64,000 nucleotides of DNA from a virus (IMGVR_UViG_3300023174_005350:1-64000), one strand, 5' to 3'. Shown: positions 274-64,000, counted from the stretch's first letter. Made by a program: numbers and translations. Notes: generated by a model from the sequence alone, not told the origin.

Positions 274-345
274 TGGCACGGAGCTTGCACAGCCGCCGCG
301 CCGTAGGCGCGGCTGGCATTATATCATAATAAAAAATAAAAGCAA
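274..345. promoter_or_regulatory. convergent promoter/hairpin element U1
   Basis: + sigma54 consensus TGGCAC-N5-TTGCA (274-289); hairpin GCCGCGCC-GTA-GGCGCGGC (295-313); - strand TTGCTT-16-TATAAT with TG extension (345-318). Confidence 0.75.
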
Positions 346-480
346 GAGAAAAAAACTAATAATGTCCACCCACCCACGGGCAAACGGCGCATGTTAGTCC
401 ATCCAGCAACGGGAGTCAAGGACGAAAAAAAATGCATCCACCCTCTTGCACGCACACGGAAGCGCGTCTATAATAAGGGC

Positions 481-666
481 ATGACCAACCAAACCTGCAA
501 CGGACGGCACACGAAGAACGATGGTTCCTACTGGGTGAACGATGCGCGTGGTATCCCGCTTGCCCGCGTCTGCACCAAGTGCGAGGATGCGAAGCTTGCA
601 AAGTATCGGAAGGACGTTCGCACGAACTCTAACTATTGGGCAGACGAGATTGTTGACGGCGACTAA
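481..666 (+). CDS. small Cys/His-containing early protein (61 aa)
   Basis: TTGCAC(446)-17-TATAAT(469-474) then ATG 6 nt later; true start probably 481 rather than 391; CxxC motif. Confidence 0.75.
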   Translation: MTNQTCNGRHTKNDGSYWVNDARGIPLARVCTKCEDAKLAKYRKDVRTNSNYWADEIVDGD

Positions 667-721
667 GGTTCCAGCGTATAATATCCCGGCAGTTAACCCG
701 TAGCACAAACGAGAGAAAAAA

Positions 722-1024
722 ATGATCATCTTCCGTCGCCTCATCCGTTCCAAGGGTTCTCAGTCCGCGAAGCTTGTCGGTGGACACCGTTTCGCGGTGA
801 ATGTTAAGACGCTGATCGCTCATGCAAAGCAGACCCGTCACGTCTACGCTTTCATTGACGAGAACGGCAACGAAGGGACCATTCGTTCCGGTGTCCTCAT
901 GCGGACGGTTGATAGCCACGTTCGCAACACCCTGACGGTTCAGGATGCGATCCAGCGTCCCTTGCCGTTTTCGGTTGACAACACTCCCGAGGTTGTGATT
1001 CGGAATGGTGTGATTGCAGCCTAG
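722..1024 (+). CDS. hypothetical early protein (100 aa)
   Basis: promoter TTGACG(653)-18-TATAAT(677); leader shared with gene at 1732. Confidence 0.75.
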   Translation: MIIFRRLIRSKGSQSAKLVGGHRFAVNVKTLIAHAKQTRHVYAFIDENGNEGTIRSGVLMRTVDSHVRNTLTVQDAIQRPLPFSVDNTPEVVIRNGVIAA

Positions 1025-1139
1025 TTGACAACCCCTTGGCTCCCGTGCTAGAATAAGGCGGGAGCCTTGGCATAGAGGTTGCAGCCGCCCTTCGGGCGTC
1101 GGCTGGCACGATTATATCATGGGCAAAAGATAAAAGCAA
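1025..1139. promoter_or_regulatory. convergent promoter/hairpin element U2
   Basis: + TTGACA-18-TAGAAT (1025-1054); + sigma54 TGGCAT-N5-TTGCA (1068-1083); hairpin 1082-1105; - TTGCTT-17-TATAAT (1139-1111). Confidence 0.75.
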
Positions 1140-1209
1140 CTAAAAAAAGAAAAAAAGAAAGTGGTTCCACCCCCTTGCAATCGTATGGGAGCGCGCATAT
1201 AATATCGCC

Positions 1210-1377
1210 ATGACCCAGACCGAGTTTCCCTTCCTGAGCAAGATCCGCACCTGCGAGGTTTGCAAGCACTCTTATGTTTCCGTGCTTGTCAACTGGGATC
1301 GTTGCGGAGTGTGCGAGGAAAACGTTAGGAAAGAAAATCTGAAATCAATACTTGCACGCTTCAACGTGAAGGAGTAG
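1210..1377 (+). CDS. Cys4 zinc-finger microprotein (55 aa, absent from ORF track)
   Basis: MTQTEFPFLSKIRTCEVCKH...RCGVCEE; TTGCAA(1175)-17-TATAAT(1198), ATG 6 nt later. Confidence 0.8.
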   Translation: MTQTEFPFLSKIRTCEVCKHSYVSVLVNWDRCGVCEENVRKENLKSILARFNVKE

Positions 1378-1387
1378 AATAACCGCC

Positions 1388-1552
1388 ATGAACAAGCCAA
1401 AGCGAATCAAGATTGTTCTCCAGAAGAAGGCGTGCGTCAAGTGTCTGACGCAATGGCAGACTAGCAATAAGGATAGCAAGGTTTGCCCTTCGTGCGTCAA
1501 TGACCCTTCAACAATCCTCACGCGGTGCCTTGCAAACATTGTGAAGCTGTGA
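1388..1552 (+). CDS. Cys4 zinc-finger microprotein (54 aa, absent from ORF track)
   Basis: MNKPKRIKIVLQKKACVKC...VCPSC; TTGCAC(1352)-17-TAGAAT(1375). Confidence 0.8.
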   Translation: MNKPKRIKIVLQKKACVKCLTQWQTSNKDSKVCPSCVNDPSTILTRCLANIVKL

Positions 1553-1563
1553 GAGAATAAGAC

Positions 1564-1683
1564 ATGATCAAAGCAAAGCGGGTTGGCGGTCTTTACTTCC
1601 TGTCCATCGGTCGTCTCCAGATTTCATTTTGTGTCAAGCGTAAGCCTAGCAAGAAAAAGATGTTGGTCCCTCCGCAGTTCTGA
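1564..1683 (+). CDS. basic microprotein (39 aa, absent from ORF track)
   Basis: MIKAKRVGGLYFLSIGRLQISFCVKRKPSKKKMLVPPQF; TTGCAA(1530)-17-GAGAAT(1553). Confidence 0.6.
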   Translation: MIKAKRVGGLYFLSIGRLQISFCVKRKPSKKKMLVPPQF

Positions 1684-1731
1684 TGTATAATAACCCTCGC
1701 AGTTAACCCGTAGAACGAAAGAGAAAAAACA

Positions 1732-1968
1732 ATGGCTACTTTCCTTGACGTGGCAGAGAAGCTTAACTCCTACAAGCGTTCCAACGGTCAGCGCGTGCTG
1801 TATGTGACCGATGCAGCGATTGTGCTTGACAGTCCGGTAGTGAGCGGTAACGAGGTTGCCGCCGTTATTGAGGGTCAGGTTTGCACGTTCACTCTCGGTG
1901 TCAACTGCTATCGTATGCTCCGCACGCGCCGTGTTGAGACTACTGAAACGTGGACGCTGGACGAGTAA
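1732..1968 (+). CDS. hypothetical early protein (78 aa)
   Basis: TTGGTC(1663)-17-TATAAT(1686); leader shared with gene at 722. Confidence 0.7.
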   Translation: MATFLDVAEKLNSYKRSNGQRVLYVTDAAIVLDSPVVSGNEVAAVIEGQVCTFTLGVNCYRMLRTRRVETTETWTLDE

Positions 1969-1979
1969 GAAAATAAAGC

Positions 1980-2061
1980 TTGACAGCTTGCCGAGTCGGT
2001 GGCATAATAGCCGCCGATTTCGGCGGCTGCATATTATATCATAAGGAAAAGAATAAAGCAA
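1980..2061. promoter_or_regulatory. convergent promoter/hairpin element U3
   Basis: + TTGACA-17-CATAAT (1980-2008); hairpin AGCCGCCG-ATTT-CGGCGGCT; - TTGCTT-17-TATAAT (2061-2033). Confidence 0.8.
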
Positions 2062-2142
2062 TAAAGAAAAGCACGGGAAGATAAGAAAAAAAAGATGTGC
2101 AGGCTCTTGATTCCCGTAGAGATTCCAGCGTATAATATGGGC

Positions 2143-2274
2143 ATGAACGAGAACAACAGCTGGTGCAAGGATTGCGGCACGGAGAAGAACCTTGTCATTT
2201 TCTCCGAGGCTCCGAAGGTTGTCCTTTGCACGGAGTGCGCCATGTGGCGTGACAGCAAGATTGACAAGCGGTAA
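2143..2274 (+). CDS. Cys4 zinc-finger microprotein (43 aa, absent from ORF track)
   Basis: MNENNSWCKDCG...LCTECAMW; TTGATT(2107)-18-TATAAT(2131). Confidence 0.75.
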   Translation: MNENNSWCKDCGTEKNLVIFSEAPKVVLCTECAMWRDSKIDKR

Positions 2275-2296
2275 AAGCGCAAGGTATAATATCACC

Positions 2297-2527
2297 ATGA
2301 CCAACAACAACGGCGTCACCTTCTGCGATGTGTGCGACAACGAGTGCGAGCAGAGCGAGATCTCTGTGCGTGAGGACTTCAACGGTGAGTGCGAGGAAGT
2401 GTGCCGCACCTGCGTGGATCAGGAGAACATGACGGAGGATGAAGTGGACGAGATGAACATGTTGGAGGAGGAGTCTGACGCCGATGTGCGGGAAGATATC
2501 CTCGATATGTACTACAACGAATATTAG
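2297..2527 (+). CDS. Cys4 zinc finger plus highly acidic tail (76 aa)
   Basis: TTGACA(2261)-18-TATAAT(2285), ATG 6 nt later; CDVC...CRTC; D/E-rich C-terminus. Confidence 0.8.
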   Translation: MTNNNGVTFCDVCDNECEQSEISVREDFNGECEEVCRTCVDQENMTEDEVDEMNMLEEESDADVREDILDMYYNEY

Positions 2528-2613
2528 TTGACAGGCGTTGGGGGGTTTGCTATACTAGCCCCCCGCGCCGTAGGCGCGGCTGGCATTATACCCCATGTGT
2601 AGTGGCGAGTCAA
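2528..2613. promoter_or_regulatory. convergent promoter/hairpin element U4
   Basis: + TTGACA-17-TATACT (2528-2556); 28 nt identical to U1 (2563-2590 = 296-323); - TTGACT-17-TATAAT (2613-2585). Confidence 0.8.
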
Positions 2614-2683
2614 GCTAAAAGCGCAGCGTGGAAAAAATAAATAAATGCTTGCGTGTACCCCCGGTTCATGAGAGTATGTGCGT

Positions 2684-3049
2684 ATGACCAACAACAACAT
2701 GACCATCGAGATCCGCGTGGGCGACGAGCTTCAGGAGATTGTTGTGTCCACCAAGTGGGAGATTTGCGAGCGTTGCGAGGGCAACGGCAAGCACGACCCT
2801 GAGTCGTTCTCCAACGGCTTTACCCAGAGCGAGTTCTATGAACTCTTCGACGATGAGGAGGAGCGCGAAAACTATTTCAATGGCAAGCACGATGTTGCGT
2901 GCCGCGAGTGCAACGCCTCGGGCAAGGTGCGCGTGCCTGACCTTAGCTCTCTCACGGACGAGGAGCGCGAGGGCTACGAGCGTGCGCTGGAGGACCGTGC
3001 CGACTACGAGCGGGAGTGCCGCTACGAGCGCCGGTACCTCGGGTACTAG
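2684..3049 (+). CDS. DnaJ-type CxxCxGxG zinc-finger protein, acidic
   Basis: CERCEGNG and CRECNASG motifs; promoter TTGCGT(2649)-17-GAGTAT. Confidence 0.75.
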   Translation: MTNNNMTIEIRVGDELQEIVVSTKWEICERCEGNGKHDPESFSNGFTQSEFYELFDDEEERENYFNGKHDVACRECNASGKVRVPDLSSLTDEEREGYERALEDRADYERECRYERRYLGY

Positions 3050-3109
3050 TTGCCCCTGTCAAGGGGGTGGTGGTTGGCTAAATAAAAAAAATAAAAGCCT
3101 CCCACCCCC

Positions 3110-3205
3110 TTGACGAATATCCACAGGTATGGTAAACTAGCCGCCTCGTTCCTCGGCGGGAGGCTGGGACACCTATATTATATCACGGGTGGATAGGTAG
3201 CGCAA
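3110..3205. promoter_or_regulatory. convergent promoter/hairpin element U5
   Basis: + TTGACG-17-TAAACT (3110-3138); GC-rich imperfect hairpin starting AGCCGCC; - TTGCGC-17-TATAAT (3205-3177). Confidence 0.75.
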
Positions 3206-3281
3206 GAAATAAAAAAAGATATTCCACCACTTGCCCACCACCATCCTATCAAGGTAAGCTAGACACATAGGAGAAAAGATT

Positions 3282-9117: not shown

Positions 9118-9678
9118 ATGTATGATGAAGAACCTTCTTATGAGGTTTTAAATAACATGAAAGTACTTACTCTGGCTTCCAACTATGAACCGCTTGGTGT
9201 TGTTTCTTGGGAGCGTGCCATATCTTTAATTTTTTCCAATAAAGTCACCACTTTAGAAGAATACGATAATATTGTTCGCTCCCCTTCTCTCACCATGAAA
9301 ATACCAGCAGTTATTGTATTTAAAAACAATAAACGTGGTAAACAGAAAAATTCTGTACGATTTTCTAGAAAAAATGTATGGGTTCGTGATGAAGGAAGGT
9401 GTCAATATTGTCAAAAATACGTTTCAATATCAACATTTACAATTGATCACGTTAATCCTAAAACAGCTGGTGGAAAGACTGTTTGGGAAAATGTTGTTAC
9501 CTGTTGTTATGATTGTAATCAAGAAAAAGGCGATAAACAATTAAAAGATGTAAATTTTAAACTAATTAAGCTACCGAAGAAACCAAATAGACTTCCATAT
9601 ATTCAAGAAATTTCTGATGGTTATTATAATTTAGAAAAAAACATACCTCAATCTTGGAAATTCTATTTAGAAAGATAA
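9118..9678 (+). CDS. HNH endonuclease (McrA-like)
   Basis: RD.GRCQYC, TIDHVNP..GG...WENVVTCC..CN..KG. Confidence 0.85.
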   Translation: MYDEEPSYEVLNNMKVLTLASNYEPLGVVSWERAISLIFSNKVTTLEEYDNIVRSPSLTMKIPAVIVFKNNKRGKQKNSVRFSRKNVWVRDEGRCQYCQKYVSISTFTIDHVNPKTAGGKTVWENVVTCCYDCNQEKGDKQLKDVNFKLIKLPKKPNRLPYIQEISDGYYNLEKNIPQSWKFYLER

Positions 9679-9681
9679 ATA

Positions 9682-10293
9682 ATGTATATAACTGCTATCG
9701 ATACGGAAACTACTGGACTAGATCTCCGCAGGCATCAAATTATTCAACTAGGAGTAATTAAATATAAATTAGAAGATTGTGGTGATTTGAGAGTGTTAGA
9801 AAAATATCAACACAACATTAGGCCAACTAATATTAAAGCCGCCTCAGAAGAAGCATTAAGAATTAATGGATATAATGAAGAAGCTTGGAGAGATTCTGTT
9901 CCTTTTATCGATTGTTTTCCATTATTAGATAATGTATTTCAAACTTCTGAAGCGTTGATTGGTCAAAATCTTATTTTTGATTTACGTTTTCTTAAAAAAG
10001 AATATTGGCGTTATGGTCTTATTATGCCAAAAGTTCCAAAATATATTGATACAAAATATATGGGACAGCAACTGGTAAATGAAGGAAAAATTAAATCATG
10101 CTCTATGGACAGCATGTGTAAGCATTTTAGTATTAAATTTAAAGGTAGAGCGCATACAGCATTGACCGATTGCGAACGTACTGTTACAGTGTGGGAGCGA
10201 TTGACTAAATACACAGAAACAAAATATTTTACTTTTGAGGAGCCATACGATGCATTCAAAAAGAACCATTCAAATGCCGGAAACGTTATCTAG
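9682..10293 (+). CDS. DEDDh 3'-5' exonuclease (DnaQ-like)
   Basis: IDTETTGL, QNLIFDLRF, HTALTD. Confidence 0.9.
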   Translation: MYITAIDTETTGLDLRRHQIIQLGVIKYKLEDCGDLRVLEKYQHNIRPTNIKAASEEALRINGYNEEAWRDSVPFIDCFPLLDNVFQTSEALIGQNLIFDLRFLKKEYWRYGLIMPKVPKYIDTKYMGQQLVNEGKIKSCSMDSMCKHFSIKFKGRAHTALTDCERTVTVWERLTKYTETKYFTFEEPYDAFKKNHSNAGNVI

Positions 10294-35720: not shown

Positions 35721-36098
35721 ATGACTATATTACTATCTATTTTATTGGTATTATCTTTAGTTGGAAACGGTATATTGATTTGGTATACCCGTAAATTAGT
35801 ACAAAATCTATATTATGGTGTAAATAATGCTGATGAAATGCAGAAGTTGCTAAACGAATACTATGATTTGCTAGAGCCATTAGCAACTCTTGAAAACTAT
35901 TATGGTGAACCAGCTATAACATCTGCTATCGCCAATACAAAGTTGGTTATGGAAGCTTGCAAGACATATAAAAACTCAATTATAGAAAGCGACAATGAAG
36001 AAAATCAAGAAGCAGAATCCACCAAAGAAAGTCAAGAAACAAAAGCCAATCAAAGTACCCAGCAAAAAGACGTTAAAACAGCCTCAGTTGGCGCTTAA
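35721..36098 (+). CDS. single-TM membrane protein
   Basis: N-terminal hydrophobic helix. Confidence 0.55.
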   Translation: MTILLSILLVLSLVGNGILIWYTRKLVQNLYYGVNNADEMQKLLNEYYDLLEPLATLENYYGEPAITSAIANTKLVMEACKTYKNSIIESDNEENQEAESTKESQETKANQSTQQKDVKTASVGA

Positions 36099-36879
36099 AA
36101 AGCGTAAATCGAGAAAGTCAAAGACGGGTATAGTGATTAAGCCAAACCTTTCTATAGAGCCTCCAAAGCCATTAGAAAGCAAAAATCAATATTTCACGAA
36201 AGAGCATGAAAATGCCATCTTGGAATATGCTTCTATATTAGATAATAATAGAAAAACAATATTATATATTAATCTTATACAACCTGCATTTAATGAAATG
36301 GTTGAAAAGATAGTTTATACCTATAAATTCAATAGTTTACCTAATATAGATGATTTAAAAAGTGAATGCAAGATATTTCTTACCACAATATTAGATAAAT
36401 ATGATACTTCTAGAGGCTCTAAAGCCTTTTCTTATTTTAGTGTAATCACCAAAAACTGGTTTATACACAAAGTAAAGAAAAATAATAATAAAAAAGAAGT
36501 ATACATAGAAGATATTAAAGACACTTCGCAGGAAGAAGAACTTGTCTATGAAGAATCATATGTTCATAATCGAGAAAAAGAAGAGTTTTGGGCAGCTTTA
36601 GAGAGTGAAATGCATGGTTGGTTTGATAAACGCTTAAAGGAAAATGAAATAAAAGTCTATAAAGCCATAGTTATGCTTTTTAAAGAAAGCGATTCAATAG
36701 AAATTTTTAATAAAAAGGCTATTTATTTATATATGAGAGAAATAACGGGATTAAATACAAAACAGGTTGTAAATAATCTTAAGAAGTTTCGTTATAAATA
36801 TGAAGAATTTAGAGAAAATTGGTCTAATGGAAACATATCACATATAAGAACTAAGGTCTATGTAGATGAGCAATCATAA
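35995..36879 (+). CDS. phage late sigma factor (T4 gp55-like)
   Basis: sigma region-2-like DDLKSE...KYDTSRGSKAFSYFSVITKNWFI. Confidence 0.7.
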   Translation: MKKIKKQNPPKKVKKQKPIKVPSKKTLKQPQLALKKRKSRKSKTGIVIKPNLSIEPPKPLESKNQYFTKEHENAILEYASILDNNRKTILYINLIQPAFNEMVEKIVYTYKFNSLPNIDDLKSECKIFLTTILDKYDTSRGSKAFSYFSVITKNWFIHKVKKNNNKKEVYIEDIKDTSQEEELVYEESYVHNREKEEFWAALESEMHGWFDKRLKENEIKVYKAIVMLFKESDSIEIFNKKAIYLYMREITGLNTKQVVNNLKKFRYKYEEFRENWSNGNISHIRTKVYVDEQS

Positions 36880-63717: not shown

Positions 63718-64000
63718 ATGGCATTTTTGGACAATTCTGGTGATATCATTTTAGACGCTGTTTTAACTGATACTGGTCGCATGAGATTAGCCAAGGGAGA
63801 TGGTTCATTTAGAATAGTAAAATTCGCATTAGCAGATGATGAAATTGATTATACTACATATAATCGTAACACAGGCTCTGCTTTTAGTGATTTAGAAATA
63901 TTACAAACACCCGTTTTAGAAGCATTTACAAATAATTCCGCAACAATGAAAAGCAAATTGATATCTATCAATCGCAATAATTTGCTATTCCTCCCAGTAA
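63718..64000 (+). CDS. virion structural protein, truncated by window end
   Basis: GAGG SD; ACTAGTTA at 63683; MAFLDNSGDIILDAVLTDTGR...KFALADDEIDY. Confidence 0.7.
   Translation, partial: MAFLDNSGDIILDAVLTDTGRMRLAKGDGSFRIVKFALADDEIDYTTYNRNTGSAFSDLEILQTPVLEAFTNNSATMKSKLISINRNNLLFLPV

Follow-up and report, generated by a model that had tools for sequence, protein, structure and literature searches.

Opposed promoters across a GC-rich hairpin in the early region of an uncultured freshwater phage: a lineage of promoter/stem-loop cassettes with a possible insulator role

The contig IMGVR_UViG_3300023174_005350 (75,005 bp) belongs to an uncultured freshwater phage, and its first 64 kb form the window analyzed here. 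Close to the start of this window lie five units (U1 to U5), each of which combines a forward promoter, a GC-rich hairpin beginning with AGCC and a second promoter on the minus strand that is aimed back at the hairpin. Such face-to-face units had been proposed in an original prediction made from the sequence, and all five are present, with the shared architecture, where it had placed them. Three properties are added here: a second stem-loop (A) brackets the forward -10 box, every unit stands directly behind a stop codon (stops at 263, 1024, 1968, 2527 and 3049), and the units are conserved in relatives. The hairpin between the opposed promoters, termed B, was recovered by RNA folding in every unit. 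The elements are as follows, with positions in the window, strand and basis of each assignment.

274-289, plus strand: sigma-54-type -24/-12 site TGGCACGGAGCTTGCA in the forward slot of U1, an exact match to TGGCAY-N5-TTGCW
291-317, plus strand: GC-rich hairpin B of U1, 8-bp stem GCCGCGCC/GGCGCGGC (RNA folds)
318-345, minus strand: putative backward promoter of U1, TTGCTT, 16 nucleotides (nt), TGATATAAT (pattern count and relatives)
1025-1054, plus strand: putative forward sigma-70 promoter of U2, TTGACA, 18 nt, TG-TAGAAT, directly behind the stop codon at 1022-1024 (consensus scan; invariant in five orthologues)
1038-1066, plus strand: stem-loop A of U2, GGCTCCCG/CGGGAGCC, whose loop holds the forward -10, as in the promoter-early stem-loop (PeSL) arrangement (PMC2839356) (RNA folds and orthologue alignment)
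1068-1083, plus strand: sigma-54-type site TGGCATAGAGGTTGCA of U2 (pattern match; only non-consensus positions vary in orthologues)
1083-1104, plus strand: GC-rich hairpin B of U2 (RNA folds and orthologue alignment)
1111-1139, minus strand: putative backward promoter of U2, TTGCTT, 17 nt, TGATATAAT (contact positions invariant, spacer scrambled)
1980-2008, plus strand: putative forward sigma-70 promoter of U3, TTGACA, 17 nt, TG-CATAAT (consensus scan)
2009-2028, plus strand: hairpin B of U3, AGCCGCCG-ATTT-CGGCGGCT (RNA folds)
2033-2061, minus strand: putative backward promoter of U3, TTGCTT, 17 nt, TGATATAAT (pattern match)
2528-2556, plus strand: putative forward sigma-70 promoter of U4, TTGACA, 17 nt, TG-TATACT, its -10 enclosed by a G6/C6 stem-loop A (consensus scan and folds)
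2557-2584, plus strand: hairpin B of U4 (RNA folds)
2585-2613, minus strand: putative backward promoter of U4, TTGACT, 17 nt, TATAAT, lacking TG (consensus scan)
3058-3114, plus strand: 13-bp perfect inverted repeat of U5 with an A-rich loop, its 3' arm overlapping the forward -35 (inverted-repeat listing)
3110-3138, plus strand: putative forward sigma-70 promoter of U5, TTGACG, 17 nt, TG-TAAACT (consensus scan)
3139-3168, plus strand: hairpin B of U5, weaker here, with a perfect 9-bp stem in the orthologue of the relative L116 (RNA folds)
3177-3205, minus strand: putative backward promoter of U5, TTGCGC, 17 nt, TGATATAAT (pattern match)

The pattern GGCTG-N(2-12)-ATTATA has five matches on the plus strand of the whole contig, at 311, 1101, 2025, 2578 and 3162, and a single one on the other strand, elsewhere in the contig. 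On the minus strand, TTG-N17-TGATATAAT occurs three times (U2, U3 and U5; 0.09 expected) and TTG-N16-TGATATAAT once (U1; 0.02 expected), which makes four matches against 0.11 expected; the backward element of U4 reads GGGTATAAT with TTGACT at 17 nt. In the forward direction, the consensus scan finds sigma-70-like sites in U2 to U5, built from TTGACA or TTGACG, a spacer of 17-18 nt and TAGAAT, CATAAT, TATACT or TAAACT, all with TG. The sigma-54 consensus TGGCAY-N5-TTGCW has two matches in 64 kb, in U1 and as a second slot in U2, against 0.07 expected.

A nucleotide search of a phage collection with the stretch gave no match, and relatives were found by protein and pattern searches. The DNA pattern GGCTG-N(2-10)-ATTATATCA proved too loose, with more than 100 chance loci, and was dropped; a tighter pattern recovered this lineage and chance terminators only. 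The relative L116 is a 119-kb contig with about 89% nucleotide identity. L118, L119, L125, L127, L136 and L145 are 77-86% identical and mosaic in gene content, several short contigs exist besides, and in L144 nucleotide-level alignment is left in the cassette alone. Cassettes are present in all relatives found, and in L119 and L144 the early region continues upstream of the first base of the window with further cassette copies. The contig of the window and L116 begin at the same base inside the early region; since other contigs run on upstream, this shared start is an assembly break, probably at a repeat, and not a genome end. On the reverse strand of L144, at about 9240-10100, the start of the early region holds a sigma-54-type site followed by a long hairpin (AGCCGCCAATAGATATA...TATATCTATTGGCGG) whose loop contains TATAAT and by a CATATG-rich repeat block, which may represent a terminus, origin or entry signal.

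Conservation was counted over 18 non-redundant copies, defined as clusters below 85% identity. The backward element retains TATAAT and TTG in all 18 (TTGCTT in 13) and TGn in 17, so that every copy has the A at position 2 and the T at position 6 of a -10 hexamer. Fourteen clusters have a spacer of 17 nt and the other four one of 16 nt, the spacer sequence is scrambled, and upstream of the -35 lies a T-tract resembling an UP element. Because the hexamers, the TG and the spacing are kept while the spacer turns over, the backward element is, as judged from this pattern of substitutions, under selection as a promoter, in agreement with the near-consensus minus-strand sigma-70 promoter of the original prediction. 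The alignment of five U2 orthologues gives the same picture for the whole cassette: hexamers, TG, both stems and the GG and GC blocks of the sigma-54 site are invariant, and substitutions pile up in the spacers of both promoters. A retained hairpin beside a lost -35/-10 spacing would have spoken against selection on the promoter, and the opposite was seen. In L119:268 and its L144 orthologue, hairpin B is gone and a direct repeat takes the place of the inverted repeat, and a backward promoter of different letters, TTGAC(T/A), 17 nt, TG-TAnnnT, is still carried; the promoter thus outlives the hairpin. A reading of TTGCTT as part of a middle promoter of the MotA/AsiA type was rejected, as profile searches for MotCF and AsiA found no homologue and the spacing does not fit: about 15 nt separate TGCTT and the -10, against 11-13 nt for the MotA box of T4.

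The minus-strand promoter likeness might alternatively be incidental, with ATTATATCA and AAGCAA serving the plus strand as an AU-rich terminator tail, an RNase E-type site or the UP element of the next promoter. Terminators of phage phiKZ consist of a GC hairpin followed by TTAT (PMC10914365), A-tracts do precede the next promoters (repeat families D1 and D4), and an unrelated phage described below has GC hairpins lacking T-runs that are followed by A-tracts and TTGACA promoters. The distances are the wrong way round for a terminator tail, however. Between hairpin and -10 the distance floats from 0 to 11 nt across the 18 clusters, for which reason ATTATA is not read as such a tail, and ATTATA and CAA are always 16-17 nt apart; the next plus-strand promoter follows at anything from 78 to 151 nt. 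The fully conserved positions are precisely those contacted by sigma-70 (TTG, TG and TATAAT), and the promoter stays where the hairpin is lost. We consider an incidental resemblance improbable.

It had also been claimed that neither promoter has a gene of its own. For the backward promoter this stands, and for the forward promoters it has to be given up: they point in the same direction as the next genes and no terminator was found between, which makes them extra upstream tandem promoters. Behind each cassette come an A-rich tract and a proximal promoter of its own for the next gene, which in most cases looks leaderless. The minus strand lacks a credible open reading frame, as had been stated. 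A frame of 261 amino acids at 1624-2409 changes like non-coding sequence: over 1732-1968, relatives differ in it by 2 synonymous and 35 non-synonymous changes, and in the plus-strand gene by 17 and 19. Small frames in the A-rich tracts are not conserved, the ATG at 362 being lost in L119. A repeated box, consisting of an A-tract, about 6 nt and (T)CCACCC(C)C, abuts the -35 TTG of proximal early promoters at 424-451, 1153-1180, 3088-3115 and 3208-3236; it is conserved in relatives and may bind a factor or act as an UP element.

The forward half is more variable in its parts. Its slot holds a consensus sigma-70 promoter, a consensus sigma-54 site, or both in tandem. In the sigma-70 cassettes, stem-loop A surrounds the forward -10 (GGCTCCCG/CGGGAGCC, G6/C6, CCTGCCCA/TGGGCAGG and others); its sequence varies among paralogues and the pairing is always kept. 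In U3, an upstream spacer segment, CGGTGGC, can pair with the 5' arm of hairpin B to form a stem-loop A around the -10 as an alternative to B. In U1 and U2, the sigma-54 site carries its GG and GC doublets 10 nt apart within TGGCAC-N5-TTGCW. The forward slot of U1 holds sigma-54-type sites in relatives too, and relatives have further, non-orthologous copies; variation is limited to the N5 and Y positions. Hairpin B follows the -10 immediately, or opens one to three bases past the TTGC of a sigma-54 site, so that forward start sites placed by canonical spacing would fall inside it. The fold of the plus-strand RNA is the more stable one in 14 of the 18 clusters, with 55 G-U pairs on the plus strand and 27 on the minus strand.

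The two -10 boxes are 24-49 bp apart in the sigma-70 cassettes, and the sigma-54 TTGC lies 21-29 bp from ATTATA. By this -10 geometry the predicted start sites are only about 3-25 nt apart, close to the 10-30 nt of the original prediction. With known footprints of the enzyme, two opposed polymerases must therefore be expected to exclude each other on the cassette DNA.

The cassettes also mark joints between genomes. Homology blocks shared by window and relatives end at cassette edges (269-273, 1968/1969 and about 3043 in the window), and the genes upstream of a cassette differ among relatives while the cassette stays. Lake contigs, which show strain variants besides joints, replace 2626-3053, which holds the gene between U4 and U5, and one of them joins a different hairpin B directly to the same ATTATA at 1111. 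The loci L130:774 and L142:142 have hairpin B and everything downstream in common, with unrelated halves upstream.

The units lie in a compartment of distinct composition. The GC content drops sharply from about 50% in the first 3700 nt to about 30% from there to the end of the window at 64,000 (and of the contig at 75,005), and since independent assemblies of L116, L118 and L119 show the same step, it does not reflect a chimera. Nearly all sigma-70-type promoter matches of the contig fall within the first 3.7 kb; the consensus scan gives 14 promoter-like sites in 4 kb and 3.7 in shuffled sequence. In many early promoters the -10 stands only 5-8 nt before an ATG, so that most early genes look leaderless. 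TATAAT or TAGAAT stands at this distance from ATG at 53-68, 469-483, 1198-1212, 1375-1390, 2131-2145 and 2285-2299, and in the AT-rich part it is all but missing, with one case at contig position 74848. Judged from these sequence features, the first 3.7 kb are an early region of tiny genes, several of them zinc-ribbon-like, apparently transcribed by the host polymerase. Among ten early proteins, Pfam gave weak zinc-ribbon and DUF7307 matches only; the DUF7307 match (Pam3 gp33-like, cyanophage) lies in the protein encoded at 722-1024 and is below the cut-off (E 1.9e-4). For the promoter-poor AT-rich genes, a frame of 294 amino acids at 35995-36879 may encode a phage sigma factor, its Sigma70_r2 match (E 3.8e-4) being likewise weak and below the cut-off.

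The contig, for which CheckV estimates a completeness of 41%, further encodes PhoH, glycosyltransferases and a baseplate wedge protein. The nearest cultured relatives by the latter are Microcystis phage Mel-JY01 and Flavobacterium phage immuto, at 30-32% amino-acid identity. The phage is an uncultured freshwater myovirus, not necessarily of the T4 type. Ribosome-binding-site usage is intermediate and does not allow the host to be named. Near-identical DNA is confined to lake, freshwater and estuary metagenomes among the sequencing runs holding the stretch. Mel-JY01 was rejected as a model system, having no excess of TTGAC-type promoters over the control.

The closest known systems are the PeSL cassettes of the T4-type myoviruses RB49/phi1, PST and nt-1 (Arbiol et al. 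2010, PMC2839356; Comeau et al. 2014, PMC4122927). Their stem-loops lie over the -10, often pair a G-tract with a C-tract, and in RB49 were shown to terminate upstream transcription (PMC2839356; PMC4122927). Both systems combine a near-consensus sigma-70 promoter with a GC stem-loop between -35 and -10 or over the -10, and both recur many times among small orphan early genes, at the joints where close relatives differ by insertion, deletion or replacement. In the present units, the strong early promoter is found in U2 to U5 (TTGACA/G, 17-18 nt, TG-TAnnnT, with CATAAT as the -10 of U3), the -10 is enclosed by stem-loop A and followed without a gap by B, and the cassettes separate small orphan genes and coincide with joints, other joints lying elsewhere. 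PeSL cassettes end in the ribosome-binding site and start codon of the driven gene, whereas here an A-rich tract and a further promoter of a mostly leaderless gene follow. Further differences are the conserved backward promoter behind the stem-loop, the sigma-54 site that may occupy the forward slot, and the second hairpin, which sits on the predicted start site. The portions of PMC2839356 and PMC4122927 that were searched make no mention of an antisense promoter or a sigma-54 alternative, and literature searches gave no description of a conserved backward promoter or a sigma-54 alternative in such cassettes. The forward half is thus a new lineage of the known PeSL design, to which the backward promoter and the sigma-54 alternative are added here.

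Two other classes of elements share single features with the units. Intrinsic (bidirectional) terminators also have a GC-rich hairpin in A/T-rich flanks at the end of a transcription unit, but the cassettes lack a U-tract, their A/T word stands at a variable distance of 0-11 nt, and they are flanked by -10 boxes, each paired with a -35 at promoter distance. Coliphage 186 (pR/pL), P22 (Pant/Psar) and IS10 (pIN/pOUT) have face-to-face promoter pairs whose action rests on transcriptional interference or antisense RNA, and the backward RNA of IS10 and P22 includes a stable stem. As in the cassettes, convergent sigma-70 promoters meet there head-on within a few tens of bases. Those pairs are single switches for one gene or decision, with starts 36-62 bp apart and a defined antisense RNA; in contrast, the present units come in at least five copies at unit boundaries, with predicted starts about 3-25 bp apart and no conserved target. 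As a contrast case, the unrelated phage L122 (IMGVR_UViG_3300047548_001271, 157 kb) has repeated GC hairpins lacking T-runs ahead of each early unit, followed by an A-tract, in one case about 30 A long, and a promoter of the form TTTGACA, 17 nt, TATAAT; a backward promoter is missing there.

On this basis we propose that the units are unit-boundary insulators and, at the same time, exchange linkers of the early region, a reading to which we assign a probability of about 0.5. It is supported by the confinement of the five copies to the early region and by counts far above chance. In this reading each cassette opens immediately after the stop codon that closes an early gene group. Its forward half would be a PeSL-type composite of either a consensus -35 with an extended -10 for sigma-70, a sigma-54 -24/-12 site, or a tandem of the two, with a GC stem-loop enclosing the -10 or the start site. 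Transcripts coming from upstream would include the complete stems, fold, and be attenuated or stabilized at their 3' ends; RNA begun at the cassette would start inside a stem, lack the full stems and continue into the next genes. Right behind the hairpin and aimed at it, the presumably strong backward sigma-70 promoter (T-tract, TTGCTT, 16-17 nt, TGnTATAAT) would load a polymerase which, bound or firing, would oppose read-through from upstream and let the hairpin work in the absence of a U-tract. The upstream unit may additionally be dampened by short, probably dead-end antisense transcription, and the conserved cassettes would double as homology linkers for the exchange of gene cassettes among related phages. 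Among the functions listed in the original prediction, the insulator and the T4-type promoter/stem-loop cassette fit best, and polymerase titration and a primer source found no support.

Several observations weigh against this proposal. No sigma-54 activator (PF00158) was matched in the contig of the window (41% complete) or in the 119-kb relative (65% of a genome), an absence from incomplete genomes with which an activator supplied by the host would be compatible. Neither Microcystis nor Flavobacterium, the hosts of the nearest cultured relatives, is expected to recognize promoters of both kinds, TTGACA/TATAAT and sigma-54. The hairpins have no U-tract directly after the stem and only that of U3 passes a loose terminator scan, so that termination at the cassettes is deduced from the PeSL precedent; canonical terminators are present elsewhere in the phage. 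The parts are separable, with a sigma-54 site and hairpin lacking a backward promoter at L119:1655 and in L144, and a cassette lacking a forward promoter at L142:142. The face-to-face pair is therefore not obligatory, and the cassette is modular and not one indivisible device. Some mosaic joints lie inside genes, and the sequencing runs that hold the stretch are freshwater DNA metagenomes with no RNA run listed among them.

A more far-reaching version, which we advance tentatively and regard as rather doubtful, is that a backward promoter set against a GC hairpin constitutes a dedicated and so far undescribed phage way of ending transcription units. A parked or head-on polymerase, either a sigma-70 open complex or, from the other side, a sigma-54 closed complex, would supply the pause that normally comes from the U-tract, and convergent overlapping promoters together with a hairpin would act as a protein-roadblock terminator and insulator.

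Of the competing explanations, the one that survives best, although we think it unlikely, is that the backward promoter makes an RNA product, either a short RNA with a 5' hairpin, about 25-40 nt in length, or an antisense transcript of greater length over the 3' end of the upstream gene group, which would silence or time early genes post-transcriptionally. Models for such a product are sar of P22, RNA-OUT of IS10 and the antisense RNAs over early genes in Pseudomonas phages. The backward promoter is strong by consensus and conserved, its predicted start lies just outside the hairpin in most copies, so that the RNA would begin with a stable stem, and in sigma-70-only cassettes the complement of the forward -10 provides an AU-rich stretch right after the hairpin on the minus-strand RNA. 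For antisense RNAs of phages, start sites have been mapped (PMC10914365). Folding favours the plus strand, however, and at L119:3198 the hairpin abuts ATTATA, which moves the predicted minus-strand start into the stem, so that the hairpin is no constant part of the RNA. There is moreover no conserved antisense target, since the upstream genes differ while the cassette stays, no minus-strand terminator, and nothing near the threshold in Rfam on either strand.

Quite improbable, too, is that the cassettes are mainly recombination linkers, as in the PeSL role, with the backward promoter merely carried along and of no regulatory consequence. The mosaic breakpoints at cassettes, the joining of one hairpin-plus-downstream half to two upstream halves (L130:774 and L142:142) and the cassette-bounded replacements in lake populations would all follow from it. 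Exchange by homology would conserve a cassette evenly, though, whereas in these units constancy is restricted to contact positions and stems and the spacers are scrambled, which argues for selection on function and not on homology length.

Polymerase sinks that titrate host holoenzyme, or primer or origin sites that start replication as in T4, are the most remote of these explanations: overlapping promoters would be mutually exclusive and a sigma-54 closed complex is stable in the absence of an activator, but five to eight sites per genome are few against cellular polymerase numbers, the DNA downstream of the backward promoter is GC-rich with no unwinding element, and the resemblance of TGCTT to a T4 MotA box fails on the spacing and the missing homologues given above. 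The resemblance itself is to the box described for T4 (PMC4122927).

If the insulator proposal holds, conflict of polymerase against polymerase would be a routine design of the early region, isolating small and possibly toxic genes by means beyond classical terminators. The PeSL concept would then extend beyond the T4-type phages, and the cassettes would offer compact and portable insulator parts for synthetic biology. As the promoters are near the E. coli consensus, the idea is directly testable in vitro and requires no phage culture. The units would also be among the few cases of sigma-54 sites in the early control region of a lytic phage, a hint that early expression in this lineage is tuned to the physiology of the host.

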